Part shown: positions 1 through 16,933 of the stretch, in pieces
Layout of the letters: every line of letters starts with the position of its first letter
Numbering within the stretch: position 1 is the first letter of the stretch
IMG/VR virus record: IMGVR_UViG_3300033149_001657
Location: 64,001 to 107,896 of that record
Length of the DNA stretch: 43,896 nt
Strand: one strand, 5' to 3'
From: a virus
Lineage: Duplodnaviria; Heunggongvirae; Uroviricota; Caudoviricetes
Made by a program: the position numbers and the translations under genes
Notes under the pieces: model-generated
Told to the model about the DNA's origin: nothing
The model's input: only the letters and a program-made list of their open reading frames with translations
The model's database searches: none

Positions 1-34
1 GAGAAAGGAGTATTTAAAAATAAATATAGATAAC

Positions 35-1105
35 CTAAAGGTCAGAAGCACTGAAGCTTCCAGACTTAGCATTAACAATTATACCGATTGCATTATCATC
101 TGTAACTGCAAATTCTCTCTCTGTCCATAGATGATACCATGTTCTATCTATTGCTGGTTTGCTCTCTTCCTCAGCTTCCAGGTCTCTCTTTATAACGTGA
201 TACCCAAGTCTGCTGGAGTCAACCATAATAGCTACTCCCTCTGGAACAAGTGGTGATTCTACTATCCTCAGATCAGCTATCATACCTATCTCTCCACTTA
301 TCAGATCTTTGTTGTAGAGTTTGGCATTTACAAACAGAGATGAAACATCTGGATCATATAACAGTGTAGATACTTCAGTGCTATTTACCAAGACTATATC
401 TGGATTTACAGTAGCAGCTAGCAAAGTGGATCTAAGATTGAATATGTCCCATGCAGTAAGAGATGATTTCTCACTAACGTCAACTACTAGACCAGATGAC
501 TTGCATCTGTTTGAGTATAAAAATGTAACTGTAGCAGCTGAAACAGAGTTTGATAGGAGAACCTTGCCATCATAATAGTCTACTGCATTTATAGTAGCTC
601 CAGGTGATACAGAAGAGATAGTAACTATCGGTGTCAGTGTTGTACTTCCAAGTGTACCACCACTCCAACTAGATATTGTACCAGATTTCAGATCAAGAGA
701 TATAGTTTGAGCTCGAAGATCCAATTCTTCAGCTAGTTTTTTACCAGCTTCATATAGAAAGTCCTTAAGAACATCTCTCACTGGCATCTCAAGAGCTTCA
801 TTATCTATTTCAAGTCTTATACCAAACTTAGATACTTCAACAGTTGTACCAGTATATGAAATTGTACTGGAGGATGAGATAGTACCTCCTTCAGAAAGAG
901 TCTCAACTGTTATACTTTCAGTAACATTAGGAAGAACAATACTTCTGGCTTTTACTTTCTCAAGATCTTTATTCTCTCTAAATATTTGAGATATTACAGT
1001 TTTACTTCTAGATACAAAATCAACAGTCTTAGATATTATTCTAGGAGTGATTTCCTGAACATCAGCTGTACCTAAAGCTAATTCAACCAGATCTTTCTCT
1101 CTCAT
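35..1105 (-). CDS. Major capsid protein, HK97 fold (paralog 1), with inserted beta-rich domain
   Basis: 356 aa, last gene of the protease/scaffold operon. HK97-like segments VEVSKFGIRLEIDNEALE, IVLVNS and GEIGMIADLRIVESPLVP. Clearly homologous to 9474..10535. Confidence 0.85.
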   Translation of the reverse strand: MREKDLVELALGTADVQEITPRIISKTVDFVSRSKTVISQIFRENKDLEKVKARSIVLPNVTESITVETLSEGGTISSSSTISYTGTTVEVSKFGIRLEIDNEALEMPVRDVLKDFLYEAGKKLAEELDLRAQTISLDLKSGTISSWSGGTLGSTTLTPIVTISSVSPGATINAVDYYDGKVLLSNSVSAATVTFLYSNRCKSSGLVVDVSEKSSLTAWDIFNLRSTLLAATVNPDIVLVNSTEVSTLLYDPDVSSLFVNAKLYNKDLISGEIGMIADLRIVESPLVPEGVAIMVDSSRLGYHVIKRDLEAEEESKPAIDRTWYHLWTEREFAVTDDNAIGIIVNAKSGSFSASDL

Positions 1106-1356
1106 CCAGATACCCTCCTTTTAGGTGGTTCTACTTCATAATGCTTGATAGCTAAGTTAGCAGCTAAATCAAGTCTTTCCCGTAGATCCAAGTTACTAGT
1201 TAAATCTTTAGTGATCTTGTTCATAGATAGTTCCTCTGAAGTCTTCTTCAAGGTCTCCATTTCTCTCTCTAGATTTTCGACTCTCTTAGTAAGTTCCTCT
1301 ATTTGTTTAAGACGTTCAAGTATCTGCAAAAGAGTATCTATTTCTGTCATTCTCAT
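1102..1356 (-). CDS. Small coiled-coil protein, putative scaffolding/accessory head protein
   Basis: 84 aa with heptad-like L/I/E/K pattern. C-terminal AANLAIKHYEVEPPKRR is shared with 1353..1610. Overlaps the capsid gene start by 4 bp. Confidence 0.55.
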   Translation of the reverse strand: MRMTEIDTLLQILERLKQIEELTKRVENLEREMETLKKTSEELSMNKITKDLTSNLDLRERLDLAANLAIKHYEVEPPKRRVSG

Positions 1357-1610
1357 CTCCTCTTCGGAGGTTGAACCCTGAAATGTTCTATAGCTGCATC
1401 AGCAGCTTTTTCAAGTAATGGTCTTACTTGAGCTCTTACATCTTCCAATCGATTTGATAGCTCTTCTACCTTCCTTAGAGAAGCAAAAACAGCTTGTTTA
1501 TTTTCCTCTTGAGTTAGTTTCTCCTCTTCTTTCTTCTCAAGAGTTTCTATTCTATTCTCTAGATTCTCTAGCTTTGTAAGTATCTGCATTAATATCTGAA
1601 CTTGATCCAT
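1353..1610 (-). CDS. Small coiled-coil protein, paralog of 1102..1356
   Basis: 85 aa. N-terminal ILMQILTKLENLE resembles TLLQILERLKQIE; C-terminal AADAAIEHFRVQPPKRR. Confidence 0.55.
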   Translation of the reverse strand: MDQVQILMQILTKLENLENRIETLEKKEEEKLTQEENKQAVFASLRKVEELSNRLEDVRAQVRPLLEKAADAAIEHFRVQPPKRR

Positions 1611-3658
1611 TATATCTGAGCCTCACGTCTCTTTTTAAAATCAGCTATCAACATATCAGCTATTAAACCTTTCTCAGCTATCATCTTAGCTATCTCAGCT
1701 GGTGATGGGATGGTTTTTTCATGGCTCTGTTGAGGAGCTTGCTCTTGTGTAATAGTAGATTCTTCTTCTTTAGACTCCTCTACGTCTTCGGATTCTTCTT
1801 TATTAGAATCGGATGACTCTTTTTCTTGCTCCTGTTTCTGAGTCTTTGTGTCATCCTCTGGTTTCTGTTCTTCTGTCTTAGTTTCCTGAGTATCTTGTTT
1901 CTGTTCTTGTTCCTGAGAAGGTTCTTCCTGTGAAGAATCTTGTGCAGATTCCTCAGTATCATTCTCTTCGTTAGTAACTATCTCTTTATCAGACATTTCC
2001 TCACTTTCATCTGTCTCAGAGTTCTCATTCTCTACATCAATATCTGCATTTAAAGACTCTTCAGAATTCTCTTTCTCATTCTTAGACTGTTTCTCAGGTT
2101 CTGGATACTTACCCTCTCCATACTTACCATACTTATCAGCATGTTCTTTATTGAAGTGATCTATCATTTCCTCTTTAGTGTCGAATTCTTCTCCACACAC
2201 TGGACATTTAAACTTCTTAGATTGTTTCTCTGTTTCTCTGCTTAAGTTACCAGCTGCAATATTAAGACTAGCTATGTACTTCTCAGCTTCTTCCTTAGAA
2301 TCAAACTGTTTGAGAATCTTCATCCTTCCATCTTTTTGCTTCTCCATTACAATGTATTTACCAGTCTGTTTATTTCTAACTATTTTGTACTCACCAAGTT
2401 CTTCTATATCCTCTAGCTCTTCAGTTAAATGAGCTCCCCCTGTACCTCTAGGTGGTAAGAGCTTGTAAGCTAGATCACCAATTAGATCTAGAAGTTTTTC
2501 AGCTGTCTCCCTTCCAAAGTGAGCTATCAATCTCTCCTTATCTGATCTTGGACCAGATGGATATTCATTGTGATAGGAGTAGTAGTACTGAGGAACTGGA
2601 TATTGAGGATAGTAAGGATACTCGTATTTCTCAGGATATCCATATTGTGGATAGTAATAATACTTTGGATAAGATTTCTCTTCTTCACCTTCTTTGGGAG
2701 ATTTTGGATAGTAGTATGGATAACCGTAGTGTGGATAACCATACGTTGGATAATAATAGTAGTAAATCTTCACTTTAGCTCTCTTCTTGGATACTGGATA
2801 TTTTCCAGCTGGATAGAAACCATATATTACTCTATGATTCTTGATAGCTTCATCAGCAGGCATAAACTCAAGTTCAACTTCTCTTTCCCTGGGTTTCAGT
2901 ATAGGTAAAACAGCTACCATATCCTGTTTAAGTTCAAATATTTCCTCAATAGCTGAGTTTTCTTGAGATTCTTTTTCTGTATTTTCTTCACTCATATTTA
3001 TTTCCTCCTTATTCTCTGTATGAACATCATCATTTTTATTCATTTCTTTTATTACTCCAAAAAATTTAAACATAGAGCTTTCTGAGCTTTTATTCAGCTC
3101 TTCAGCATTAACTATAATACATGATTCACAAGCTGGTGCACTTGTAAGAGAGTTGTCTACTGGTTCAAGATCTATTCCTTTATCAACACCACCAACATTC
3201 TCTTTCTTTAAATATAGTTTCAAACTAGTACCTACAAATCTACCGTTCTTTAGCTCTTCTATAGCTTTAGGATCTGTTATCTCGGCTTCATACAAAATAG
3301 CTCCAAGAGTATCAGACCACTCAACATTAGTATGTTGTCCTACAGCCTTTGAACCAAAATCATCATCTCTCTCATGCTCTATTCTTACTGGAAGCTTAGA
3401 AAGCTTATCCTTGAATATCTTGTACATCTTTTTAATCTCTTCCTTAGAATAAAGAACACCATTCCATACACCCTCAGCTAATAGAATGCCTGAAATTCTG
3501 AGCTTGTCTGCAAGCTCTTCTACTACAGAGAAATCTGATAGTGTCTCAACCTCAACTGTGTCTGATATATTCCTCTTGGTAAGCTTTTCTATTTCTTGTC
3601 TGAGATAGGTATTTTCAGCTATTAGCTCATTAACAATACTATCACTCATTGAAACCAT
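1610..3658 (-). CDS. Prohead maturation protease fused to Tyr/Pro-rich region, C2H2 zinc finger and acidic scaffold-like tail
   Basis: N-terminal ~180 aa resembles caudoviral prohead proteases (ISGILLAEGVWNG, IEHERD, GTSL, DNSLTSAPAC). C2H2 finger CPVCGEEFDTKEEMIDHFNKEH, E/Q-rich C-terminus, position upstream of a capsid gene. Confidence 0.7.
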   Translation of the reverse strand: MVSMSDSIVNELIAENTYLRQEIEKLTKRNISDTVEVETLSDFSVVEELADKLRISGILLAEGVWNGVLYSKEEIKKMYKIFKDKLSKLPVRIEHERDDDFGSKAVGQHTNVEWSDTLGAILYEAEITDPKAIEELKNGRFVGTSLKLYLKKENVGGVDKGIDLEPVDNSLTSAPACESCIIVNAEELNKSSESSMFKFFGVIKEMNKNDDVHTENKEEINMSEENTEKESQENSAIEEIFELKQDMVAVLPILKPREREVELEFMPADEAIKNHRVIYGFYPAGKYPVSKKRAKVKIYYYYYPTYGYPHYGYPYYYPKSPKEGEEEKSYPKYYYYPQYGYPEKYEYPYYPQYPVPQYYYSYHNEYPSGPRSDKERLIAHFGRETAEKLLDLIGDLAYKLLPPRGTGGAHLTEELEDIEELGEYKIVRNKQTGKYIVMEKQKDGRMKILKQFDSKEEAEKYIASLNIAAGNLSRETEKQSKKFKCPVCGEEFDTKEEMIDHFNKEHADKYGKYGEGKYPEPEKQSKNEKENSEESLNADIDVENENSETDESEEMSDKEIVTNEENDTEESAQDSSQEEPSQEQEQKQDTQETKTEEQKPEDDTKTQKQEQEKESSDSNKEESEDVEESKEEESTITQEQAPQQSHEKTIPSPAEIAKMIAEKGLIADMLIADFKKRREAQI

Positions 3659-3694
3659 CCCACAATTAATAGTGCATTTTCTATAATTTAAATA

Positions 3695-4030
3695 TTAACT
3701 AACATAGAACTCTGCATTAGTATCAACATCATGCTCCTCACTTTTCGTATTAAGCTTCTTCATCACGTGTTCAGTCCATTTTACATCGTTCTTAAGAATT
3801 TTAGTTGCTATCTCCTTGAATTCAGACAGTATCTGTTCAAGTTCACTCTCATCAAAATCATTCATAATAGATGGATTGGTAAGCCATGTGTTCCATCCCA
3901 TGTAAGAAGCTAATATAGCTTTGTTGCATTTGTTTATTCCATTAACATATCCAAGTCTATCTTTGGGAAACATAGATTCTATTTCTTTTATTGTTGCCTT
4001 AACTCTATTAATCCATTTATCCATACTCAT
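3695..4030 (-). CDS. DUF2153-like archaeal helical protein
   Basis: KDRLGYV and GWNTWLTNPSIMNDFDESEL match my recollection of the DUF2153 pattern (DRL..., GW..WL.NP.IM..F...EL). Confidence 0.6.
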   Translation of the reverse strand: MSMDKWINRVKATIKEIESMFPKDRLGYVNGINKCNKAILASYMGWNTWLTNPSIMNDFDESELEQILSEFKEIATKILKNDVKWTEHVMKKLNTKSEEHDVDTNAEFYVS

Positions 4031-6021
4031 TTCCTCTTCTCCCTTATCTGAGATCTAACAAACTCATGTAGCTTGTTTTTCTTAATCCAATTAACTGCCT
4101 TATCATAATCCCATTTGTCAGATTTAAACGTTACATAAGCTACTCTAGCATGATGAATCTTGCCTGGTACAGAATATAGCCCTATAGCTATTTCCACTCC
4201 TTCTGGAATTTCTAGATCTGGTAGATACTTCTTTACTCTCTCATCTGGTTCTACTCTAGTAAACTTACGTATATCATAGATATGTACTATGAAATGATCC
4301 CATCCTCTCTTCTCTTCTATTTGGAATGGATCAAATGGTTCTCCTGTTCTAGGATCACCAGCTGATAATAATTCATAGTATAGCTCCATTAACCTGAATT
4401 TCTTAGATAGTTCTGGACTTGGAAGTTTACTCTTCATAAATTTCCACTCACCATTAGTCTTTCTTATAATGAAGTAACCTTTGAGTTTGCTACCTTTTAT
4501 GTTCATTGAAATAAAGTTTGGACTAGTCTCTAGCAGTGTAAGTTCACCATGATCCACAGTCTCTACTTTTGACCATACACCATAAGATCTTATCCTTGTT
4601 CCTGGTTCTTTTATAGACATCCATTTATCCACATCTACACCACAAGTTTTGTAAACAGCTTTTATTGGCTCTTCTATTTTAGCTTTTATTGGATTACCAT
4701 ATAGATTAACTTCTTCAAGATAGTTACTATCTTTTAGCTTCCATCTCAAGTCATAATGATAGTCAGGATCATCTTCAGGGAACCAGTGTTTATCTAATAC
4801 GAACTTTGCAATTCTTTCTTCTAGTTCTGATAGTTTCTCAAATGTGTAAGTATCTGTATCTGGATCTTCTTGTATTAACTGCCATCTACCACGTAGCTTC
4901 TTACCTTTAAATTCGATAGTTACTATCTCTTCCCCTGTTTCAGTTCTCTCTGTAGAATATTTAGCAGTACCACTATCTACAGTAGTAAAGTCAGCTGCCA
5001 TTCTCTTGTTCTCATTGAACTTAGTATCTGGACCAATCACACCATCATATGACATCCACTTTCTATCTGATCTGTCCATTTCATAAGCTCCCATTACTTC
5101 GTCTCTCAATGGATAGCCATCTAGTAGAAATGTACGCACTCTTCCCTCTCCTTTATCGTCAATGAATAAATACCATCTAAACTGAGGCACCTGTCTTCCA
5201 GACTTTGCTCTAAATCCCATCCAGCTCACTAAAGCTAGTGAAAACTTTACATTTTTTGATAGAAGCTCATCCTTCTTAGAGACATAGAGTTTTTCTAGCT
5301 TGTTAATATCTTTCTCATCAGACTTAGTAATCCACTGTAACCATTTTCTATATTGATCTTCAAAGTTCTTCTTAACCCATTCTTTAGGAAATGGAAATGG
5401 ACATTCCTTAGGTGGCTTCCATTTCTCTCTAATTGCTCTATTAGAAATAGTATATGGCAATTGAGTCTTTGGTATCATAAATCTCCACATCCTCTCATAC
5501 TTACCAGGAATAGGTTTCTTAGTTTCAGGATCTATCTTAGCTACTTTAATGCCTCTGATCACCACTCTAGTCCAGTCTTTAAAATACTTGTTATCTTTAA
5601 GGAAGTATTCATGGAAATAGACTTTCTGAGCTCCAGTCATATGCACACCAGTAGTTAGTATCTCAAACTTACCTGGAGCATCTTCTCCAGCTCCGACTTC
5701 ACCAGGTGGCACTTCACCCTCTACTTTTAACCATTGTAATGGTTGCCTAGCTTTAGTCTCAGCTCTAAATCCTTTACCAATATTGTCTAAAAGATTCTGG
5801 ACAGAAAATGGATCATCCTCACTAAACCCAACTATAGACCATCCAATCAAATATCCATTAACCTTCAATCTTAAATCTCCATGATTAGACTTCCCTATAC
5901 TATGTCTCTGAATAACAAATGGTTTTGGCTCCGTTACATACTCCATATACTTAGCAACTAATTTAGCTGCTATATTTTCTGAAACAACTAGCTCATCCAA
6001 CATATACTTATATATTTTCAT
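4027..6021 (-). CDS. Protein with three tandem LigD-type 3'-phosphoesterase (PE)-like domains and a C-terminal domain
   Basis: FVIQRHSIGKSNHGDLRL and FVLDKHWFPEDDPDYHYDLRW match the PE motif FV.Q.H......HYD.R. C-terminal PE-like strands TVDSG...FKGKKLRGRWQL and TVDHG...IKGSKLKGYFII. Confidence 0.75.
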   Translation of the reverse strand: MKIYKYMLDELVVSENIAAKLVAKYMEYVTEPKPFVIQRHSIGKSNHGDLRLKVNGYLIGWSIVGFSEDDPFSVQNLLDNIGKGFRAETKARQPLQWLKVEGEVPPGEVGAGEDAPGKFEILTTGVHMTGAQKVYFHEYFLKDNKYFKDWTRVVIRGIKVAKIDPETKKPIPGKYERMWRFMIPKTQLPYTISNRAIREKWKPPKECPFPFPKEWVKKNFEDQYRKWLQWITKSDEKDINKLEKLYVSKKDELLSKNVKFSLALVSWMGFRAKSGRQVPQFRWYLFIDDKGEGRVRTFLLDGYPLRDEVMGAYEMDRSDRKWMSYDGVIGPDTKFNENKRMAADFTTVDSGTAKYSTERTETGEEIVTIEFKGKKLRGRWQLIQEDPDTDTYTFEKLSELEERIAKFVLDKHWFPEDDPDYHYDLRWKLKDSNYLEEVNLYGNPIKAKIEEPIKAVYKTCGVDVDKWMSIKEPGTRIRSYGVWSKVETVDHGELTLLETSPNFISMNIKGSKLKGYFIIRKTNGEWKFMKSKLPSPELSKKFRLMELYYELLSAGDPRTGEPFDPFQIEEKRGWDHFIVHIYDIRKFTRVEPDERVKKYLPDLEIPEGVEIAIGLYSVPGKIHHARVAYVTFKSDKWDYDKAVNWIKKNKLHEFVRSQIREKRK

Positions 6022-8981
6022 TCTAGTGTCCTCCTCTCATAGATTCTATAACCATAATAATATGATTTGAGATACACACATCTGAATATACTAGCTAATG
6101 GACATGCTACTGGAAACCTAAGAGACTGAATCTTTAACTTTGTCATCTCTTCATATCTAGGTCTACCAAATATCATTTTCAATGGGCAAACCGACTTGTC
6201 CTCACTAAATGGACATAATTCCAAATCAAGTACTATTTCCTTAGAAAGCTCAGCTGGTCCAGTTCCTAGCTTAGCTATTCTCTCTACAGTCGTAAGAGTA
6301 TCTGGCTCTTTCTTGTCCAGTCTCTTCTCTTTAAAATAAGGAAACATCCATGTGTAATAATATTTGCCATCTTTAGTTTCATACCGTCTGATTCTAATTG
6401 GCATCACAGTGATGATGTCTCCTCTCCTACACTTGACATCTGTAGCATAACTTCTTCCTATAATTGCATAGTGCTTACCCTTGTACTCTACAACCTTATT
6501 CTTTGGAAAGTCATCTACTTTATCCTCTGGTATCAAATAGACAGAGACATACATATAGTTCCCTAATGGTTCACCAGTCTCCTTTCTCTTCTTTTCTATT
6601 ACATCCCATACCATTACATCTATTTCTTTGAGATTCTTGAGCTTAGCCCATCCTTCAACTCTGTTCTCTCCCTTATACTTGACTGGATATGTTGAATCAG
6701 CTGCTTTAGCTACTACTCCTTCAGAACCATTTACACGTCTCATCTTCTCAACAGCTGCTAAGAACTCTCTTGGAGAATCAACATAAATTGATCTTACCAC
6801 ATCAAGATATTTTGTATTCTTTGGAACTATCTTCTCCAATAGTTTAAATCTCTCAGAATATGGCAGATTCACTACAGGTTTCCCATTGTAATACATGATA
6901 TCATAGAACACATAGACAATTCTCTTCTCCAGATCTGGAGAAACTCTTCCAATTGTAATAGCAGCTGTATCTTCTCTTTCCATCAAGTCATAATTATTTC
7001 TCTTTAGCTTAGCAGATTTAACAGAGACATTTGAAGGTATCTCAAAAGCTACCATCTCTCCATCAAGAATACAACTATCACACTTAAGACTATCTTTGAT
7101 TTCTTTAATTATATTTGGGAACTGTTTAGCTCTATCTCTCTGTCTATCTTCTGTAAATATCTTAATAAGGTCCTTATCTTTGTCAACATGAAGTTGCATT
7201 CTGCGTCCATCAACCTTTTCCTGTACGAAGATTCCTTTATCTATGTATTCTTTAGCCCAATTCTCATACATCTCTTTGGAATCCCAGAACTCATATTTCT
7301 CGAACCCACTCTTTGGTTTGGCACCTATTATCGGTTTTCCTATCTTTATCTCTTTAGATAAATGTTCAAAACGGAATGGACCAAATCCTCTAACCATTTG
7401 ACTGTAAGGGATCTTAAAGAATCCTTTTCTATAGACATTTAGAGAATATCCAATTAAAGGACCGTATTTGTCAAAGACTGGATGTATTCTTCTCCCTAAC
7501 CATCTAGGAGAAATTGATTTTAATGCTCTAACTATCCTTGGATCATATTCTCCTTTTATGATGATATCAATATCATGATCCTTAGGGATTTTCCCCTCAT
7601 TCACTAATCGTCCAGCTATATACATATCATATGGTTCATCATTTAATATGATATGTATTGGAAGTGATTTCATTACATCTTCTAAAGTTATGTAGTCTCC
7701 TTCTGGTTCTGGCATCTCTTCTGATTGGAAAATAGCTTTTGGTGTTGGATATTCAGACACTTCTAACTCCACAGCTTTCTCCAGAATATTATTTCCTTTG
7801 TTCTCTTCCCATAGACCTCTCTTATAAAGTTCAATACCCACGAATACAGCTGCATCGTGGATATTTTCTGGTATCTTCTCTGGAGTATCAGCTGAGTGTT
7901 CCGCCATATCTACTAACAATCTCCATAGTGAAATTAGATCTTCATCTGTAAGTGATATAACAAACTCTGCATCTATATCTTCTATTCTCATTCCTTCTGG
8001 AAGTGAGAATAGTAACTGTGATTGTTCTTCTTTCCAAGGAATATTCTCTTTACCTATTTGTTTCACAATCCACTCAAATAATTCTCTAGCATGTTTCTTG
8101 TATGTCTCTGGTTTATTGAACGTAAACTTAGTAATCTCTTTCTTCTTGTATTCATTGTATCTCCTAATCATTTCTTTAGCAATAGATAATCCAAGCTTTT
8201 TGGTATCATCTATAGTAATTGGAGTACCATCCTTTCTTTTAAGAGCCTTACCTTCTTTAATCGAAGAGTACCAAGCTAATACTATTCTCCAGTCATCAGC
8301 TAGAGATCTATCATCCACATTCTTTATATTCCTAATATAATCTTCAACCGATTCTCTGATTAGATAAACAATTCTATCACAAGCTGTTCTAGATAAATGA
8401 ATCATACCTCTATCTAACATTTCATTTGCTATTATAAAGTGTGCTTCACAACATGGTGAGAATAATTCTGTGTATGAATGATAGAAAGCATGATACTTCT
8501 CCAGTTCTTCATTCATCATTTCACTTGGTTTGATAAATTCTATATTTTCAGCTCTAACAAATGTCTGAATTCCCTTTGGTATTCTTACTGGCTTAGGAAC
8601 TGAAAACGGTTTGAACATGAATTCATAAACATATAATGGTTCAGACCAATCCCATTCTTTGTATTCTTCTTCTGTTATCTTATGTTGATCTCTTAGCTTA
8701 TCAAATTCTTCTTTAGTTATCTTCTTAGGTTCTTTTAACCAAATTATCCCATAACATAGATCACCAGAAATAAGATACAGTGGTTCATCAATATGTTTCT
8801 TAAATTTACGATGTTTAACAATTAGTGTTTTCTTACCTTTCCATATAAGTTCACTATGAGGTTCTGTCAAATACAAACCCATCTTAGGTTCTTTAGGAAA
8901 CTCTTTAGGTATAATTGGTTCTATATCCTCAGGCTTAAGCTGTAACATTTCTTTCTCACTCATAGTAACTAAATCCCTCAC
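6018..8981 (-). CDS. lig: Multidomain ATP-dependent DNA ligase: ASCH-like domain, three helical repeats, Pol-beta-type nucleotidyltransferase-like domain, ligase core with OB fold, Cys-rich tail
   Basis: Ligase motifs QEKVDG (I), ILDGEM (III), FYDIM (IIIa), EGVVAK (IV), WAKLK (V). NTase-like YIAGRLVNEG...DHDIDIII. ASCH-like LYLTEPHSELIWKGKKTLIV. Confidence 0.85.
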   Translation of the reverse strand: MRDLVTMSEKEMLQLKPEDIEPIIPKEFPKEPKMGLYLTEPHSELIWKGKKTLIVKHRKFKKHIDEPLYLISGDLCYGIIWLKEPKKITKEEFDKLRDQHKITEEEYKEWDWSEPLYVYEFMFKPFSVPKPVRIPKGIQTFVRAENIEFIKPSEMMNEELEKYHAFYHSYTELFSPCCEAHFIIANEMLDRGMIHLSRTACDRIVYLIRESVEDYIRNIKNVDDRSLADDWRIVLAWYSSIKEGKALKRKDGTPITIDDTKKLGLSIAKEMIRRYNEYKKKEITKFTFNKPETYKKHARELFEWIVKQIGKENIPWKEEQSQLLFSLPEGMRIEDIDAEFVISLTDEDLISLWRLLVDMAEHSADTPEKIPENIHDAAVFVGIELYKRGLWEENKGNNILEKAVELEVSEYPTPKAIFQSEEMPEPEGDYITLEDVMKSLPIHIILNDEPYDMYIAGRLVNEGKIPKDHDIDIIIKGEYDPRIVRALKSISPRWLGRRIHPVFDKYGPLIGYSLNVYRKGFFKIPYSQMVRGFGPFRFEHLSKEIKIGKPIIGAKPKSGFEKYEFWDSKEMYENWAKEYIDKGIFVQEKVDGRRMQLHVDKDKDLIKIFTEDRQRDRAKQFPNIIKEIKDSLKCDSCILDGEMVAFEIPSNVSVKSAKLKRNNYDLMEREDTAAITIGRVSPDLEKRIVYVFYDIMYYNGKPVVNLPYSERFKLLEKIVPKNTKYLDVVRSIYVDSPREFLAAVEKMRRVNGSEGVVAKAADSTYPVKYKGENRVEGWAKLKNLKEIDVMVWDVIEKKRKETGEPLGNYMYVSVYLIPEDKVDDFPKNKVVEYKGKHYAIIGRSYATDVKCRRGDIITVMPIRIRRYETKDGKYYYTWMFPYFKEKRLDKKEPDTLTTVERIAKLGTGPAELSKEIVLDLELCPFSEDKSVCPLKMIFGRPRYEEMTKLKIQSLRFPVACPLASIFRCVYLKSYYYGYRIYERRTLE

Positions 8982-9342
8982 ATTAAATTCAACATTATCT
9001 TTAAATAATAATATTATCTTTACATTATATTCTTGTTCTAACAGCTTAATATATTCTCCTAACTTATTGCCTAGTTTGATGAATTTGATAAAAAAAAAGA
9101 TATGAAAAAAAAAACAGAGATTTCTTCTTTGATTTGAGTCATCGAAGTCTCTACTTATCAGTGATTCTAGTTTAGAAACATTGATTGAAGAGTGTATATG
9201 ATATTTTTATGCCATTATATTGGAAGAGAAATTATTCATCTTTATGTAAATCTCCAAAGTTAGTTACTATTTTAGTCTTACCTATAGTAGCATTGATAAT
9301 ATATTTTATGTATTTGAATATCCATACTCCTAATGATTATTG

Positions 9343-9432
9343 TAATTACGTATCTCTCTACTAAATATAAGTTAAATAGTATAGCTATACGTAATTAAAT
9401 AGCTATAATACGTATTATTTAATCTTTAAATA
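9343..9432. promoter_or_regulatory. Divergent control region with TATA-like boxes, palindromes and an inverted repeat
   Basis: Lies between the oppositely oriented head operons. TTAAATAG occurs three times (~9372, 9395, 9426). Palindromes GTATAGCTATAC (9379-9390) and ATAATACGTATTAT (9405-9418). 11-bp inverted repeat at 9343-9353/9387-9397. Confidence 0.6.
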
Positions 9433-9473
9433 GCACTGTTCATATTTATTAGTAGATAGAGGTGAAATAAAGA

Positions 9474-10535
9474 ATGAAAAACATTACAGAACTAGCTGTT
9501 GGCACAGCAGATGTAGCTGCAATTACAGCTAAGGCTATATCTGATTCTATAGAAGAGGTCACAAGACAGACCAATGTGTTTGCTCAACTATTTAAGCCTA
9601 ACAGAGATCTTGTTGGAGCCAATAAACCAAGAGAGATAGTTTTTCCTAAGAAATCTACTGGAATATCTGTTACTTGGGGAGTTTCTCCTGGATCTTCAGT
9701 ATCTCCTAGCTCATTCTCATATGATTCAGTGACTATTGCAGTTCAAAAAGTTGGTATTCAGCTTCAATTCACAAATGAGGCTCTTGAAATGGCTCTTAGA
9801 GATGTTATTCAAGATCATATCTATGAAACTGGTCTTGAATATGCAGAAGCTGTAGATGCTCGTGCTCAGACTGTCCTTCTTGATCTAAAGAGTGATACCA
9901 TTACTTCATGGACTGGTGGATCCATAGGAGCTGCAACTGCACCTGTAATCAGTATTACATCTGTGTCTGGAGCCACTATAGAGAGTGTCAAGTATGATGA
10001 AGGAAGTGTCATATTAACTGGCTCAGTGGCAGCTGCTACAGTGGTTTATACTTATGCTAACAGACTTAAGTCAACTACACTATGGGTTGGAGCTTCCTCA
10101 GCTGGCAGCTTATCACCTAAAGACATACTCAGAGCTAGAGCCAAAATGATTGGTCAGTACAGAGATCCAGATGTCGTTATTATCAATCCAGTCGACACTA
10201 CGACACTATTCTTTGATTCTAATGTTAAACTTGTAGATGCTTCTCAGTATGGTGGAAGAGAACCTCTTCTAAATGGCGAACTTGGAAAACTCTTTGGCAT
10301 GAAAATTGTAATGTCCACTGGTGCTCCTGAAGGATGTGCTATATTAGTCGACACCAAGAGACTTGGATATGATGTTAGAAAGAGAGAACTAGAAGGTACA
10401 AGAGAAGTCAAGCCTGGTCTTGACTCAGTCTTCTATTACTTCTGGGCTGAGAGAGACTTTGGTGTTGTTGATGACTATGCAGTAGCAGCTGTAGTGAATG
10501 CAGCTAACTCAGATTCAACATATCCAGCTTCTTAA
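9474..10535 (+). CDS. Major capsid protein, HK97 fold (paralog 2), with inserted beta-rich domain
   Basis: 353 aa. GAGGTGA RBS upstream, hairpin downstream, followed by neck genes. Motifs IAVQKVGIQLQFTNEALE and NGELGKLFGMKIVMS. Confidence 0.88.
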   Translation: MKNITELAVGTADVAAITAKAISDSIEEVTRQTNVFAQLFKPNRDLVGANKPREIVFPKKSTGISVTWGVSPGSSVSPSSFSYDSVTIAVQKVGIQLQFTNEALEMALRDVIQDHIYETGLEYAEAVDARAQTVLLDLKSDTITSWTGGSIGAATAPVISITSVSGATIESVKYDEGSVILTGSVAAATVVYTYANRLKSTTLWVGASSAGSLSPKDILRARAKMIGQYRDPDVVIINPVDTTTLFFDSNVKLVDASQYGGREPLLNGELGKLFGMKIVMSTGAPEGCAILVDTKRLGYDVRKRELEGTREVKPGLDSVFYYFWAERDFGVVDDYAVAAVVNAANSDSTYPAS

Positions 10536-10563
10536 ACAGCTAGTATCTAGTTCATGTGAATTT

Positions 10564-10594
10564 GCCTATTATCTCTGTCTTCGGGATAATAGGC
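10564..10594 (+). terminator. Stem-loop after capsid gene 2 (terminator or RNA processing/stability element)
   Basis: GCCTATTATC-TC-TGTCTTC-GG-GATAATAGGC: perfect 10-bp stem extendable by 2 pairs, about 30 nt after the stop codon. No clear U-tract follows. Confidence 0.55.
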
Positions 10595-10659
10595 GTATTG
10601 TATTTCTGTAAAAGAATTAAAATAGCAGTTTACACTATCTTTTAATTGGTGACTATTTA

Positions 10660-11301
10660 ATGGGTTATGCAACAATAAATGAGGTTAGGAATTTAACAGG
10701 ACTAACTGACACTGATATAGACGATACTGACTTGTCTGATCTCATTGACTTAGCAACTAAGATGATAGTTGAAGATATGACAATTTCAGTTATAGATGAA
10801 GAACCATCTGGCAAAATAAATGGCTCAAACACTACGTTTACTGTCTATCACTATCCTATTGCAGACATAGATGGAGATGGACAAGTGACTGGTTCTGATA
10901 TAACCGTTTACACTTGGACAGATGATGACGATCCAAGTACCAAGAGCACAGTTTCTATAAACACTGTTTATCCACGTAATGGAATCATAATCCTACAGAA
11001 TCCACCATCTACTTCCATAGAGAAAATAACAATTGATTATGCCTACACATGGGAAGAAAACATCGATTGGGATCTTGTTAAGATAGCTTGTTCCTGGTTA
11101 ACAGCTTATCTGTTCTGTGTCAAGAAGTTTACCACTGTACCAGAGTCCGTTGTAAGAGGTCCAGTAAGATTCAGATATTATACAAAACCATACAATGAAT
11201 ATCTAAAAAACTACTATCATGTCATGTCTCTGATTAAGAGCAAGAACCATGTTAAGAAGACACATTCAGAGATGACTCTCAGGAGGACTAAACTAACATG
11301 A
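10660..11301 (+). CDS. Head-tail adaptor (gp6/gp15-like) with inserted beta domain
   Basis: N-terminal YATINEVRNLTG...LIDLATKMI and C-terminal LVKIACSWLTAY are typical of adaptors. Directly follows the capsid gene. Confidence 0.7.
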   Translation: MGYATINEVRNLTGLTDTDIDDTDLSDLIDLATKMIVEDMTISVIDEEPSGKINGSNTTFTVYHYPIADIDGDGQVTGSDITVYTWTDDDDPSTKSTVSINTVYPRNGIIILQNPPSTSIEKITIDYAYTWEENIDWDLVKIACSWLTAYLFCVKKFTTVPESVVRGPVRFRYYTKPYNEYLKNYYHVMSLIKSKNHVKKTHSEMTLRRTKLT

Positions 11302-11678
11302 GTTCTGTGATGGATACCTCATGGCATCAGAATAAACTAATAGATACTTATGGTCAGGACATAGCTATTTACAAATACACAATATCTACAGATGAGAATG
11401 GTATTGTTGAAAGCGAGATTTGTTATGATACGATAGTAACTAAAGGCTGGATAATTCCAGTTACTGGTCTTATGGAAGTATGGGAGATCATTGGTTATAG
11501 AGTAGAAGGAGACTATTCAATATGTATTCCAAACACAGTCACTGTCTCCACACAAGACAGAGTCAAACTCCCTGATGACACTACCTGGAGAATACGTTCA
11601 ATAGTCAAACACTGGGACTTCAACAACGTAGCTTACATTGAACTCATAGTGGGAAGAGATAGTGGTGAGGTCGAATGA
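11298..11678 (+). CDS. Head closure/stopper protein (SPP1 gp16-like)
   Basis: 126 aa, beta-rich, YGQDIAIY...QDRVKLPDDTTWRIRSI. Canonical position after the adaptor. Confidence 0.6.
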   Translation: MSSVMDTSWHQNKLIDTYGQDIAIYKYTISTDENGIVESEICYDTIVTKGWIIPVTGLMEVWEIIGYRVEGDYSICIPNTVTVSTQDRVKLPDDTTWRIRSIVKHWDFNNVAYIELIVGRDSGEVE

Positions 11679-12091
11679 TAAAAGCAAGTTTTGAATTTAC
11701 AGATAAAAAGCTTCATAACTTAATTACTGGTTTAAGCAGAGCTAGTGTTGACGGAATATTCGATGGATGTACCCCTATGATAGATGAAATCAATGAACGA
11801 TCTGAAAAAGAATATGTAATCACTGCCAGCTACACAGATATGGAAGTACTGGTCAGACCTATAGATGAAGATTTTGAAATTGAAAGAGGTAAGAAGATTC
11901 TACTTTCTGAAGAGACAATGACATATCGTTCAAAGTGTTACATAGCTCCCCTAATAAAAGAGAGAGGGCGAGAGGGAGGTACTCAACCAATAGGATGGAT
12001 AACTAGATCTGAACTATTGAGCATATTTAGAAAATGGAAACGATATATATCTTCAACTGTAAAAGACAATATTCTAAGTAGTATGAGGTGA
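11675..12091 (+). CDS. Putative neck/minor tail protein (HK97 gp10-like position)
   Basis: Synteny between stopper and terminator; sequence evidence is weak. Confidence 0.35.
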   Translation: MIKASFEFTDKKLHNLITGLSRASVDGIFDGCTPMIDEINERSEKEYVITASYTDMEVLVRPIDEDFEIERGKKILLSEETMTYRSKCYIAPLIKERGREGGTQPIGWITRSELLSIFRKWKRYISSTVKDNILSSMR

Positions 12092-12987
12092 ATAAAATGC
12101 CATTTAGTCTAGAATCCATTAAAACCAGTATCAGAGATACATTAAGAGCCTATCTCTATCCTCAGTGTCTATATGGTTCTGAAGAACATACATTATCTAC
12201 TACCTTGAATATTATAGAAGTAGCTCAGTCATTCAAACCATACTCAAAGTTTTATAGAAACGTAACTCCATATTCAAATACAGTACCAATAACTATCAAG
12301 CTTAAGAAAATAGGAGATCCAGATGATGATATAGTTGTTTCACTACAATCTAGTTCTAACAATCTTCCATCTGATTCTACCTTGGGAGCTTACACAATTT
12401 CAGCTTCTGATGTTTCAAGTACTTTAGATACTGTTTCAGCTAATATTCCTATAACTTCAATGCTTGGTTCAAATACTGAATACTGGATAGTAGTTTCTCC
12501 ATTAAATACACCTTCTACTACAGATTGCTATGCAATTGGTAAGGACAGTGTTGATAGTCACTATTGGATTGGTACTAGTCTATATAGAGAATCGGGTGAT
12601 TCATGGTCAAGTTTGAATGTTGATTTGTATTTTGATGTGGATACTCCAAACTGGATCTATACATCATATCCAAGATCTGATCTAAGTCTGAATTCGTATC
12701 CAAGAATAGCTGTTGATGTAATAGGTAGAAGAGTTAATCAGAGATGGATAGATAAAAGACTATCAGAATACTGGTTAGAAATACTAATAATGGTTTATAG
12801 CAGATATCCAAACGAGCTTGATGACATAGTGTCTTATGTTGATAGATCTCTATTCAAAGAAAGAGTCAATATCTCTGGTATTAAAAGGATAGACTCTTCT
12901 GTAATTAGTCCTATAAGCAATGTAAGGAACATCATCTATGCTCGTGGCATAAGATACACTGCTATTTATCAAATGATTTCTGATTGA
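12088..12987 (+). CDS. Tail terminator/completion-like protein with large inserted S/T-rich beta domain
   Basis: N-terminal helix SLESIKTSIRDTL and C-terminal IYTSYP...YPRIAV...LEILIMVYS resemble tail terminators. Central ~165 aa insert (ITIKLKKIG...LGSNTEYWIVV). Confidence 0.55.
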   Translation: MNKMPFSLESIKTSIRDTLRAYLYPQCLYGSEEHTLSTTLNIIEVAQSFKPYSKFYRNVTPYSNTVPITIKLKKIGDPDDDIVVSLQSSSNNLPSDSTLGAYTISASDVSSTLDTVSANIPITSMLGSNTEYWIVVSPLNTPSTTDCYAIGKDSVDSHYWIGTSLYRESGDSWSSLNVDLYFDVDTPNWIYTSYPRSDLSLNSYPRIAVDVIGRRVNQRWIDKRLSEYWLEILIMVYSRYPNELDDIVSYVDRSLFKERVNISGIKRIDSSVISPISNVRNIIYARGIRYTAIYQMISD

Positions 12988-13107
12988 TTTCTTGTTTCTT
13001 TTAGACCACTTATAGTGACATGATCTACACTCATATACATATCTTAGAATCTTTACCTTCTTGCAGCCACATCTTGGACATCTAACTTTATTCTTCATGG
13101 TAACCAC
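12850..13107 (-). CDS. Small zinc-ribbon protein
   Basis: CPRC...YECRSCHYKW. The 3' end overlaps the convergent gene by 138 bp. Confidence 0.55.
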   Translation of the reverse strand: MVTMKNKVRCPRCGCKKVKILRYVYECRSCHYKWSKRNKKSIRNHLINSSVSYATSIDDVPYIAYRTNYRRVYPFNTRDIDSFFE

Positions 13108-14078
13108 TTCAGTATCTTCAGATCTATTGGAGACAGATGTACAGACGCTTTATGTGAAACATTAAATGTTTTGTAAGATTCCAGTAACATATCAAGATTT
13201 GAATACTTCGGATTCCATTTTAGCTCATGCCTAGCAGCTGAAATATCAAAATAGAAATTCCTATCAAGAGTCATGTAATGCCATTTGGCTACTGGAATAA
13301 ATGGATCCACCAATCTGCCAAAATATTTAACACAAGATGGAAGACATACTATCCTTGACTCTGAACCAACACCAGATATTAAATATGAAATATCTTCTTT
13401 GAGAGTACCAAATCTATTTGTGCCTAGATTAAAATCCTGGTAAAATCCTCTATAAATCATCAATTCTAATGCATCCACTAGATCATCTAGAGATAGTAGC
13501 TGAAATCTGTTGTTTCCATTCCCTATTAGATAGACATTCTTATTATTTCGTATCCAATACATCAAAAGATATAAAATTCCTAATCTATGTTTTCCTATTA
13601 CTGTTCTTGGTCTAACTATGGTAATATTGAAGTCTTCTACCTCCCTAGCAATCTCACAACATTGTTCAGCCAGTAGTTTTGATTTACCATATGGCTCTAT
13701 GGGTATGCGTTCTGAATATTCAGATAATGGACCTGGAGTTCCAGCGTATACAGCTGATGATGACACAAATATAAAGCGACTGACATCAGCGTTAACTGAC
13801 TTTGTAACAAGATCATCTGTTCCATAGGTATTGACTTTAAGATAGTCACCAAACTTCAACTTCTCGACTGGAAGCCTAGCTGCCAGATGATAGACCACAT
13901 CTATTTTCTCCAAGAGATCTTTGCTTATGTTTCTAAAGTCCGTCTTATAATGAGTAAGATTTGGGTGAGCAAAGGGTTTGTCTAGTAGATCCACTGTTAT
14001 TACACTGTGCTCGGTTACTAACTTTCTAGCAAGACTTGATCCTATAAAGCCTGAACCGCCAGTAATCAATATTCTCAA
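13095..14078 (-). CDS. NAD-dependent epimerase/dehydratase (extended SDR)
   Basis: ITGGSGFIG, HLAA, SSSAVY, YGKSK. Confidence 0.9.
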   Translation of the reverse strand: MRILITGGSGFIGSSLARKLVTEHSVITVDLLDKPFAHPNLTHYKTDFRNISKDLLEKIDVVYHLAARLPVEKLKFGDYLKVNTYGTDDLVTKSVNADVSRFIFVSSSAVYAGTPGPLSEYSERIPIEPYGKSKLLAEQCCEIAREVEDFNITIVRPRTVIGKHRLGILYLLMYWIRNNKNVYLIGNGNNRFQLLSLDDLVDALELMIYRGFYQDFNLGTNRFGTLKEDISYLISGVGSESRIVCLPSCVKYFGRLVDPFIPVAKWHYMTLDRNFYFDISAARHELKWNPKYSNLDMLLESYKTFNVSHKASVHLSPIDLKILKWLP

Positions 14079-15070
14079 ATTAGTTCTTTTCTCCTACACC
14101 ATTTGATGGATTCTTTCATTCCCTCTCTCAACGAGAAACTTGGACTGTAACCCAGCTCTCTCCTAGCTTTAGAAATATCACATGCTATGTTGAGAGCCAT
14201 TTCTCCAGCTACATGAATATATGATGAGTATAATCTCATCTTTTGTAAGATCCTGTCTAGTAATCTACATCCAGATGAAATGAAAGATGGAAGATAAATA
14301 GGATCTATGTTAACATCAAGTAGCTCAGCTATAGTCTCATAGATTTCGAGTGTAGTGTACGGTCTCTCATCTGCTATCCAATATGTAGTATTCCATCTAT
14401 CCGTCTCTGATGCTAGGAGAATAGCATCTATTAGATTATCTATGTAAGTCATAGATCTAATATTCCTCCCATTACCAAAGATTATTGGTCTTCCAGACTT
14501 TATCATCCTAAACAGTTTGGTTTGTCTTTCTGGTTGATTTGGACCATAATACCAACATGGCTTCAATATTATTCCATCAATCTTTCTAGACTCCCAATAT
14601 CCTCTCAAATATTCCTCAGCTAACCATTTACTTCTACCATAAGCCAAGTATGGCTTCCTGAATGTTCCTTCATTCATAAGTATCTCATCTTCGGTATATC
14701 CAACAGATGAATTACTTGAGATAAAAATAAATTTCTTGACATTGTTGTGTTCACATGCCTTTAGCATGTTTAGAGTTCCCTGAGCATTTACTTCCATTAA
14801 TGTCTTTGGTCTAGCATGAATAACACCAGCTGCATGTATAACTAAATCAATATCCTTGGTTGCTTCAACCAAGGTATATATTTCTCTAACATCACCATTA
14901 ATCACATCAGCTTTCAATGGATTTGAAGAATTTCTTAGTACTAAGCATCTAAGATTCCAATCTTTATGTTCCTTAAGTATCCTCTCAACCAATCTTGTAC
15001 ACAACCAACCAGGATATCCTGTTACAAGAACTCGAAGATTCATTCTTTCACCTCCTAATGTATTTCTCAT
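14075..15070 (-). CDS. NAD-dependent epimerase/dehydratase (extended SDR); likely start near 15040
   Basis: VTGYPGWL, HAAG, ISSNS, YGRSK, YYGP. Confidence 0.88.
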   Translation of the reverse strand: MRNTLGGERMNLRVLVTGYPGWLCTRLVERILKEHKDWNLRCLVLRNSSNPLKADVINGDVREIYTLVEATKDIDLVIHAAGVIHARPKTLMEVNAQGTLNMLKACEHNNVKKFIFISSNSSVGYTEDEILMNEGTFRKPYLAYGRSKWLAEEYLRGYWESRKIDGIILKPCWYYGPNQPERQTKLFRMIKSGRPIIFGNGRNIRSMTYIDNLIDAILLASETDRWNTTYWIADERPYTTLEIYETIAELLDVNIDPIYLPSFISSGCRLLDRILQKMRLYSSYIHVAGEMALNIACDISKARRELGYSPSFSLREGMKESIKWCRRKELI

Positions 15071-16139
15071 ACTCTCTAAGAGACCTGAACTGTTCTCTGG
15101 TTAGATATGCCTGAGGATGTCTATCCTTTAGAAACTTGTATGATTGAATCCATGACATTCCTAGAAACTTTATTAAATATCCACACACAACCATTACAGA
15201 TCTTCCCCTACCTTTATCACAAAATACCAATACATCTTTCTTGTATACTAGATTAGTAGTTAACACATCAACATACTTGTCCAGAATGAGTGGATGTATA
15301 TAAGATCCCTCTTCCATATGAAGTCTAGCATCTATCTCTATTGGAAATTCTTCATGTCCTTTCCCACCAACATATAAATGATTTAGAACTCTTGAATAGT
15401 TACTATTTGTGATATTTCGTATTCTTGAAACTAAGAATCCAAATATCAAATCTTTCTTATCCTCGTACCAAATCTTCAGTAATCCAATAAATGTAGATAT
15501 CCCAGACTTTAATAAATTAGTAAATATTTTGCTCTTGCCATATTGTCTAGAATAGTGATGGATAGGAATCTCTTTGATGTCATATCCGTACTTATCTGCC
15601 ATAAGACAAAGTTCTGTGAGTGGAGTATACTCGAGTTTATTAAGGCTCATTATAATCCAAAGTAGATCTTTCTTTATTAGTTTATAACCACAGTTACTAT
15701 CTCTAAGATTTATACCAAATAAAAATCTAGTTATCAAATTCATAATTCTTGAAAATAGGATTCTAAGGAAACTGTCTTTTCTATCAACCTTAGCTCCAGT
15801 AACTAGATCTCCGTCAATTTCAAATATAGATCTGTCTATCTTATACTGACCATCACCATCCATAACTAGAATTTTATCATAAGAAGCAGCTGCACATCCA
15901 TCCTGAATTGATCTCATATATCCAAGATCTCTTTCGTGTTTAATTAGAACAGCTGGATACCTACTAGCTATCTCCACTGTTCTGTCTGTAGATGCATTGT
16001 CAACTACTATAATTTCTTTAATTTTATTGTATTTCATAGCATCTTCTATTACACTATCAATGCTCTCCTCCTCATTCTTGACTGGTATAACCAAAGATAT
16101 CATACAATACCTCCTATTCCCAACAAGATAATTGAACAA
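15048..16139 (-). CDS. GT2 (Dol-P-Man synthase-like) glycosyltransferase fused to a dual-specificity phosphatase; likely start 16103
   Basis: VIPVKNEE, VVDNASTD, MDGDGQ, DSNCGYK. C-terminal VLVFCDKGRGRS is a CX5R P-loop. Confidence 0.85.
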   Translation of the reverse strand: MFNYLVGNRRYCMISLVIPVKNEEESIDSVIEDAMKYNKIKEIIVVDNASTDRTVEIASRYPAVLIKHERDLGYMRSIQDGCAAASYDKILVMDGDGQYKIDRSIFEIDGDLVTGAKVDRKDSFLRILFSRIMNLITRFLFGINLRDSNCGYKLIKKDLLWIIMSLNKLEYTPLTELCLMADKYGYDIKEIPIHHYSRQYGKSKIFTNLLKSGISTFIGLLKIWYEDKKDLIFGFLVSRIRNITNSNYSRVLNHLYVGGKGHEEFPIEIDARLHMEEGSYIHPLILDKYVDVLTTNLVYKKDVLVFCDKGRGRSVMVVCGYLIKFLGMSWIQSYKFLKDRHPQAYLTREQFRSLREYEKYIRR

Positions 16140-16933
16140 GTAATAATGAACATATATCTAAACATTTTGTCTTTAAACAGAGCTTGTGGATTTCTTATCT
16201 TATATGGATCTCTACTCATTAACATAAGGTACCTTCCTATTAAATATGAAATCAAAGGCAGAATATAGATCGAAGTTTGTCCAAGAACAATCAACATAAA
16301 AACCATAAACATAGCACAATTGACAAGTAGTAACTTCTCTAACAATACAACATATTCTCCAGTAAGAATAGCTCTATGTTTATACGATCTATCTTTAAGT
16401 AACTTATACTCTCCTATTCTCTTACCAGATGACATCATCATAGCAAATAAAAAGATACATGCCAACAAATAATTATCTGGTTCAATATTAGTAACTAAGT
16501 ATCCTTGAAGTACTCTAAAGACATAATTGTTAGAGAGAGATATGATATCCAACAATTCATATTTCTTAAATATGAAGTTATACAATGAACCATTAATGAA
16601 AATACAGAAGACAAATGTCAATGGTACCTTTATACTAATAATCAATAAAGGCAAAAGCAGAATCATTAAATAAACAAGAGCTCTGTCTTGTAATATCTCT
16701 CCAGAAGCTATAGGTCTATGTTGTTTCTCTGGATTTATTCTGTCACTATCGTAATCACATAAATCGTTTATAATATAGATAATTCCAGACATAATACATA
16801 ATGAGATAAATGACAATATAAGTAAAGGATAGTTACTAACATTCAGAATGTCTCCTGATAATAAAAGAGGTAAAAATACCAGAACATTCTTGTACCATTG
16901 TTCTGGTCTGAGGACTCTGAGATACTTGTTCAT
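16100..16933 (-). CDS. UbiA-family membrane protein, polyprenyl-phosphate phosphoribosyltransferase-like
   Basis: LRPEQWYKN, YIINDLCDYDSDRINPEKQHRPIASG, GKRIGE; multiple hydrophobic segments. Confidence 0.85.
   Translation of the reverse strand: MNKYLRVLRPEQWYKNVLVFLPLLLSGDILNVSNYPLLILSFISLCIMSGIIYIINDLCDYDSDRINPEKQHRPIASGEILQDRALVYLMILLLPLLIISIKVPLTFVFCIFINGSLYNFIFKKYELLDIISLSNNYVFRVLQGYLVTNIEPDNYLLACIFLFAMMMSSGKRIGEYKLLKDRSYKHRAILTGEYVVLLEKLLLVNCAMFMVFMLIVLGQTSIYILPLISYLIGRYLMLMSRDPYKIRNPQALFKDKMFRYMFIITCSIILLGIGGIV

Follow-up and report, generated by a model that had tools for sequence, protein, structure and literature searches.

Two paralogous HK97-fold capsid genes in a probable archaeal virus suggest a two-protein shell

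In nearly all tailed viruses a single shell protein forms both the hexamers and the pentamers of the capsid, and T4-like phages are the textbook exception. Here we analyse a pair of capsid genes in an uncultivated tailed virus represented by IMG/VR record IMGVR_UViG_3300033149_001657 (genome G000), namely in a stretch of 43,896 nucleotides, hereafter the window, that comprises bases 64001-107896 of the complete 107,896-bp record. Two described systems are closest to this arrangement. In T4, HK97-fold paralogs split the hexon and penton roles, with gp23 forming the hexamers and gp24 the pentameric vertices (PMC13185644). In the Ekchuahviridae (Kukulkanvirus GBV301/GBV302), head-tailed viruses of ANME-1, there are two HK97-fold capsid genes while all other morphogenesis genes are single; a separate protease accompanies each capsid gene, and the second capsid gene has been read as a transfer from haloferuviruses (PMC9894754). 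We take T4 and the ekchuahviruses as precedents for two capsid-shell genes, an arrangement seldom seen in tailed viruses; for archaeal viruses, we found no precedent in the literature other than the ekchuahviruses.

The locus in the window resembles T4 in that each genome has one protease and two paralogous HK97-fold shell genes, of which one is the better conserved. The resemblance extends to gene order in this virus's relatives, where the shell genes are adjacent and lie downstream of protease and scaffold-type genes. Unlike the T4 proteins, the pair described here is of the PF25209 type, with no match to Gp23 (PF07068) in a Pfam search; its members are much closer to each other (45% identical) and equal in length to within a few residues, and a small upstream protein has been duplicated as well. 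The derived copy lies upstream, whereas in T4 gene 24 follows gene 23. The host, moreover, is probably archaeal. Unlike the ekchuahviruses, this virus has a single protease domain, both of its capsid copies belong to one family, the commonest layout among its relatives is tandem and the genomes are larger (107-128 kb versus 70-80 kb). As for relatedness to Nakonvirales, tblastn with the upstream capsid protein returned no match at E 1e-3 among 50,697 GenBank phage and archaeal-virus records.

We refer to the two genes as MCP-1 (major capsid protein 1; open reading frame (ORF) 35-1105 on the minus strand, 356 aa) and MCP-2 (ORF 9474-10535 on the plus strand, 353 aa), in window numbering. Their BLASTP alignment (E 1e-96) spans 337 residues, 45% of them identical and 66% positive, and has 7 gap positions. 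This bears out an initial annotation of this DNA, which had described two full-length paralogous capsid ORFs aligning end to end; the three motif pairs that it quoted are all present in the alignment. Both copies match PHROG 'major head protein' families (E 2e-10 and 4e-14). Against the PF25209 cut-off of 27 bits, MCP-1 scores above (36.7 bits) and MCP-2 below (24.9 bits), and the other Pfam match for the pair is a weak one to PF05065. AlphaFold2 models of both copies, which rest on a 27-sequence alignment, have predicted local distance difference test (pLDDT) values of 83.5 for MCP-1 and 83.3 for MCP-2, and Foldseek matches both models at probability 1.0 to the capsids of phages NF5, DT57C, HK97 and lambda and of HFTV1 (Haloferax tailed virus 1). 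An HK97-type capsid fold, on which the initial annotation depended, is thus predicted with confidence for both copies. Full-length MCP-1 retains every HK97 element (N-arm, E-loop, spine helix, and P and A domains). Insertions or deletions between the two collinear proteins span just 2-3 residues, and sequence differences are dispersed, the largest being at the tip of the E-loop, in one helix of the A domain, in the N-arm and at the C-terminus. The complete G000 genome contains exactly two capsid-gene matches.

Searches of proteins and contigs yielded many loci and a family of some 30 proteins; for a pattern search the 27-member alignment was too diverse and was replaced by two sub-alignments. 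Both capsid genes occur in the terminal-repeat genomes G000 (107.9 kb), G001 (109.8 kb), G002 (107.0 kb) and G004 (113.9 kb) and in the contigs G003 (128.2 kb), G005 (a 38.5-kb fragment) and the short L037 and L038/L054. A further contig, L043, holds both small genes that accompany the pair, then MCP-1, and then ends. Whether related viruses keep both copies had been put forward as a check on the pair, and they do, in G001-G005, L037 and L038/L054 and, as far as its contig reaches, in L043. A single capsid gene is present in G007 (69.0 kb, complete since it has terminal repeats), G006 (68.4 kb), G009 (65.2 kb), G010 (48.8 kb) and contigs of 71 and 81 kb. Single-copy relatives such as IMG/VR 3300033150_000701 (69.0 kb, terminal repeats), 3300005573_000089 and JABAOC010002581.1 have in common with this virus a protease-like gene, a small coiled-coil protein gene, a capsid gene, a hairpin, four neck genes, and tube and tape-measure genes; they differ in having only one capsid gene, one small protein and genomes of ~65-81 kb. 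Fragments aside, two-copy genomes are ~1.6 times as large (107-128 kb versus ~65-81 kb). In the three single-copy relatives just named, the capsid protein is 51-56% identical to MCP-2. Where both paralogs were compared, single-copy capsid proteins are 54-56% identical to MCP-2 and 41-42% identical to MCP-1, so that MCP-2 is the paralog that matches the single capsid gene of the smaller relatives and MCP-1 is the diverged one.

In most two-copy relatives, gene order places both copies in one head operon. Single-copy viruses have a protease-like gene, one small (~90 aa) protein, the capsid gene, four neck-type genes, tube and tape measure. The commonest two-copy order is protease, small proteins A and B, MCP-1, MCP-2 and the same neck genes, and the capsid pair is tandem and co-oriented in G003, G004, G005, L037 and L054. 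The gap between MCP-1 and MCP-2 is 77-125 nt in L054, G005 and L037; it widens to 0.64 kb in G004, with a 110-aa gene inside, and to 2.3 kb in G003. Whatever the layout, MCP-1 remains next to protease-A-B, and MCP-2 remains next to the neck genes. In G000, G003, G004 and G005, MCP-2 is followed by a perfect hairpin of 11-13 bp that varies in sequence; in G006 and G007 a hairpin of 9-11 bp lies after the single capsid gene. After MCP-1, no comparable perfect hairpin was found.

The window itself departs from the tandem layout. G000 reads tube(-), 126-aa gene(-), MCP-1(-), B, A, protease and onward to ligase(-), followed by MCP-2 and neck genes(+); G004 reads tube(-), then ligase and onward to protease, A, B, MCP-1 and the 110-aa gene(+), followed by MCP-2 and neck genes(+). 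The 126-aa gene of G000 and the 110-aa gene of G004 are homologues (53% identity), and given this homology and the matching gene orders, G000 and G004 differ by one inversion running from the ligase to the 126-aa gene. On this comparison of gene orders, the back-to-back layout of G000 and G001 is a derived one, produced by a single inversion that split a tandem pair. Because this layout would have arisen late in the lineage, separate regulation does not appear to be the ancestral design. The initial annotation had raised the possibility of alternative capsid types under separate control: the divergent units of G000 agree with it, and the tandem pair before one hairpin in at least five lineages weakens it. 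In G002 a different rearrangement has left the capsid copies 22 kb apart. This genome also has fusions or insertions in its neck-type and ligase genes that were not seen in other genomes: its first neck-type gene encodes 560 aa (L020:11173-12855) versus ~213 aa elsewhere, and its ligase region is one 1694-aa ORF (L020:14739-19823).

The MCP-1 start overlaps the stop of the gene for B, with an AGGAGGG ribosome site upstream. MCP-2 is preceded by an AT-rich divergent intergenic region of 492 bp (8982-9473) that holds its ribosome site, GAGGTGA, and a putative promoter element, the TATA-like TTTAAATA, ~45 nt before the ATG; it is followed on the plus strand by a perfect 12-13-bp hairpin with a T-rich run (10563-10595). 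The TATA box and hairpin ascribed to MCP-2 at the outset, and the divergence of the two genes, are therefore present. The accompanying view that MCP-1 ends a minus-strand operon did not hold: the same strand runs on beyond the window start, and downstream of MCP-1 in G000 lie the 126-aa gene, tail tube, a tape-measure-like gene and fibre genes. MCP-1 had seemed to be last because the window begins at it.

The two copies have evolved asymmetrically. In the capsid tree, all MCP-1 sequences sit behind one stem of length 0.45 with 100/100 support, the MCP-2 stem measures 0.086, and MCP-2 and single-copy sequences lie near the base on short branches. In the best tree MCP-1 stands next to the single-copy clade, a weakly supported placement (91/76) in which MCP-1 and MCP-2 are not sisters; the tree gives no sign of gene conversion. 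A tree of the neighbouring 213-aa gene recovers the two-copy viruses as a clade (100/99 support); trees of the protease and of the 299-aa neighbour gave no supported resolution of these viruses. Between G000 and G001, the one unsaturated pair, synonymous divergence (dS) is ~0.44 for both genes, and the ratio of nonsynonymous to synonymous divergence (dN/dS) is 0.116 for MCP-1 and 0.034 for MCP-2, which is 3.4-fold higher in MCP-1. Neither copy thus shows relaxed selection, a point on which the initial annotation had asked to be checked. Within each genome, synonymous divergence between the paralogs has reached saturation (dS 1.0-2.9), which makes the pair an old one. A recent or decaying duplicate was considered and rejected, given the saturated synonymous sites and the low dN/dS. 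Of 21 ortholog pairs, 20 show stronger conservation of MCP-2 than of MCP-1. The remaining pair is G000-G002, in which MCP-1 is 82% identical versus 36-50% for the protease domain, A and B (B 37%). MCP-1 and the 126-aa gene that follows it are 82-85% identical between these genomes (L008:10007-11491; L003:19609-19989), and this sequence similarity suggests a recent exchange of the two-gene segment between lineages.

Upstream of the capsid gene, the 682-aa protein encoded at 1610-3658 on the minus strand carries an N-terminal prohead-protease-like domain, followed by a region rich in Tyr/Pro and in acidic residues that includes a C2H2 zinc finger; its C-terminal tail is conserved. Within the first 200 residues, positions 66-155 match phrog_976 'head maturation protease' (E 9e-6), and His95 and Ser145 are invariant in 10 homologues of the domain; their 50-residue spacing is likened to that of His65 and Ser114, which we take to be the corresponding pair of the HK97 protease. 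From the PHROG match, the invariant His/Ser pair and the gene position, we assign the N-terminus as a putative prohead protease with moderate confidence, as a profile search gave no PDB match to the domain and Pfam gave nothing relevant at E up to 1. A profile of the domain hits one location in the complete G000 genome, and hence one maturation system would act on both capsid copies. The rest of the protein has long YYYYPYY-type Tyr/Pro runs, the zinc finger at residues 483-506, a very acidic low-complexity stretch and the conserved ...ADLLI... tail; among relatives, the length of the protein ranges from 367 to 787 aa.

Two small coiled-coil proteins are encoded between the protease-like gene and MCP-1, both on the minus strand. 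A85 (1353-1610) is like the sole small protein of single-copy viruses, and B84 (1102-1356) is, by sequence comparison and tree, a derived paralog of A85 (33% identity, E 2e-8; common C-terminal motif AA..AI.H(F/Y)...PPKRR). B-type proteins occur only in two-copy viruses and group as a clade (88/96) whose stem, at 1.05, is long. To judge from these comparisons, two genes are doubled, the capsid gene and the small-protein gene, and the inner copy is the diverged one each time. The place of A85 between protease and capsid gene suggests that it is a scaffold or assembly factor. A complex prediction for MCP-1 with B84, run without controls, scored 0.00 and speaks neither for nor against binding.

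A separate type of element also carries an MCP-1-like capsid gene (L051:4710-6936, L036, L039-L042, L050 and L057). Identity is mostly 44-46%, falling to 31-32% in L036 and L057. The order in these elements is capsid gene, two unrelated genes and a small coiled-coil homologue, with no protease or neck genes nearby; no long contigs of this type were found. The elements could be the source of the B-MCP-1 pair, satellite-like elements or members of a different virus group.

In aggregate, we consider it somewhat more probable than an even chance that both genes encode working shell subunits of a single capsid. Clade-wide retention, purifying selection, HK97 architecture, one protease and a tandem layout with one hairpin argue that both proteins are structural in the same head. 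A heteromeric capsid was one of the possibilities first proposed for this locus, and since the checks on fold, selection and retention do not refute a two-capsid-gene system, it is the best reading; co-assembly itself is what we infer from them. The ancestral head operon would have held a protease/scaffold-like protein, one small coiled-coil protein, one capsid gene, the hairpin and the neck genes, and gain of a second capsid gene and a second small protein would have given the order protease-A-B-MCP-1-MCP-2-hairpin-neck. MCP-2 would have kept the ancestral place and character, while MCP-1 would have diverged fast and later been held by purifying selection, a course suggestive of a structural role that is new and narrower. 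The block from the ligase through MCP-1 and its 126-aa neighbour would then have inverted in G000 and G001, creating two back-to-back units. The asymmetry between a constrained MCP-2 and a diverged MCP-1 parallels that of gp23 and gp24, and for this reason we prefer, by analogy with T4, a split in which MCP-2 would most likely be the bulk (hexamer) subunit and MCP-1 the vertex or pentamer subunit; the data allow mixed capsomers just as well. The pair is found only in the clade with larger genomes and may be tied to building a larger head. Phage N4 packs 70 kb at triangulation number T=9 and T5 packs 122 kb at T=13; by comparison with these phages, the two-copy clade could have a larger triangulation number.

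Several observations weigh against a two-protein shell or against parts of it. A pentamer-former signature was sought in MCP-1 and MCP-2, and just 7 clade-specific conserved differences emerged, scattered and uninformative. The ribosome sites of the two capsid genes are strong and alike, and thus give no sign of a difference in dosage. Nor do the data support a strict cognate pairing between B and MCP-1: the G000-G002 comparison sets 82% identity for MCP-1 against 37% for B, and evolutionary distances correlate at r 0.08 for B versus MCP-1 and at r 0.63 for A versus MCP-2, correlations that are weak evidence because ortholog pairs are not independent. As to origin, sisterhood of MCP-1 and MCP-2 was not rejected in an approximately unbiased (AU) test (p 0.27). 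The correlation with genome size goes back to one evolutionary event and is no more than suggestive; T5 and other T=13 phages use one capsid protein, so a second is not required for a large head.

Other roles for the pair have to be set against this reading. The copies might be alternative or redundant shell proteins, with one or the other used according to host or conditions, or with two particle types being made. The diverging units of G000 and G001, the AT-rich upstream region that MCP-2 has to itself, the 22-kb separation in G002 and MCP-1 alleles that seem mobile between lineages (82% identity versus 37-50% for B and protease) would all suit such a scheme. However, tandem genes before a shared hairpin, which fits co-expression, are the commonest and probably the ancestral layout, and there is one protease, one portal-like gene and one terminase; redundancy is in addition hard to reconcile with strong purifying selection maintained past synonymous saturation in every lineage. 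We judge alternative or redundant shells to be decidedly improbable. It is also unlikely, in our view, that one copy, most probably MCP-1, acts outside the lattice as a decoy for capsid-sensing host defences, a portal-vertex nucleator or the shell of a separate compartment. Such a role would explain the long stem branch and the 3.4-fold higher dN/dS of MCP-1, and MCP-1-like and small-protein genes do occur in an unrelated context without protease or neck genes (L036, L039-L042 and L051). Yet MCP-1 is full length with all HK97 elements retained, it is translationally coupled to head-assembly genes and its linkage to the protease is constant.

How the second copy arose is a matter of origin only and fits any function. 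MCP-1 and B may have been acquired by recombination from a related virus or element, not duplicated in place, and we regard this as quite plausible, if somewhat short of an even chance. One insertion of a B-MCP-1 cassette between A and MCP-2 would account for the nested order as well as for the two long branches; other gene contexts also hold MCP-1-like capsid genes, and the best tree does not make MCP-1 and MCP-2 sisters. A transfer has likewise been proposed for the ekchuahvirus MCP-2 (PMC9894754). Set against acquisition are the AU test, which leaves sisterhood standing, and the failure to find a complete single-copy genome with an MCP-1-type gene in IMG/VR or metagenome contigs. Furthermore, the candidate donor elements put the capsid gene first and the small gene later, not B before MCP-1.

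Whatever its origin, the clade offers a natural before-and-after comparison, in which the same head operon occurs with one or two shell genes and in genomes of ~70 or ~110 kb. Should both proteins prove to be part of the shell, the clade could relate capsid-gene duplication to capsid size and specialised lattice positions, and could reveal whether small scaffold-like proteins are doubled in step with the capsid proteins that they partner. The fullest version of the two-protein shell, namely that a second shell protein and a second small protein let the lineage move from a ~70-kb to a ~110-130-kb head, through a heteromeric lattice with fixed positions in an archaeal virus with perhaps a DPANN/Woesearchaeota host, is speculative, and we hold it to be rather doubtful.

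Upstream of the protease-like gene and co-oriented with it are genes for a DUF2153 protein, a LigD_N-like 664-aa protein and a 987-aa ATP-dependent DNA ligase (3695-8981, minus strand). This ligase/DUF2153 block adjoins the head genes in relatives too, and in G000 it is inverted together with MCP-1. Beyond the hairpin after MCP-2 lie four plus-strand genes (213, 126, 138 and 299 aa; 10660-12987) that we presume from their position to be head-completion or neck genes; their one domain hit is a very weak Phage_connect_1 match (E 0.47). In all relatives, four neck-type genes stand in constant order downstream of MCP-2 or of the single capsid gene. An Rfam scan of window positions 1-11000 returned no matches.

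The complete G000 genome ends in a 114-bp direct terminal repeat and has an archaeal-type gene set, with a family B DNA polymerase, RadA/Rad51, an anaerobic ribonucleotide reductase and an ERCC4 nuclease, alongside DUF2153, the ATP-dependent ligase, many glycosyltransferases, and portal-like, tube-like and fibre genes. Its large terminase matches phrog_2 (E 3e-31) and its portal phrog_9232 (E 3e-9); against the GenBank phage and archaeal-virus collection, the terminase has just distant 26% matches, to enterobacterial phages. From this gene content, G000 is probably a tailed virus of archaea. A protein 96% identical to MCP-2 is encoded on L072 (CAYTYH010000048.1, 4.2 kb), which is binned in a 'Candidatus Woesearchaeota archaeon' metagenome-assembled genome, and the binning of this one short contig gives a weak hint of a DPANN archaeon as host. 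DPANN/Woesearchaeota genomes are just ~10 times the size of this virus's genome.

Directly after the neck genes, a minus-strand sugar-modifying block (13095-21856) encodes two epimerase/dehydratases, four glycosyltransferases, a UbiA prenyltransferase and a radical-SAM/SPASM enzyme; one of the glycosyltransferases carries a fused dual-specificity phosphatase domain. In both capsid proteins the spine helix is followed by a beta-rich stretch (~residues 139-200), which together with the sugar genes raises the possibility of virion glycosylation. Lastly, a 13-bp palindrome that recurs genome-wide, GATAGTAACTATC, lies at window positions 617-629 inside the MCP-1 coding sequence and is not in MCP-2; allowing at most 1 mismatch, it has 16 strand-matches in the window versus 0.18 expected by chance.

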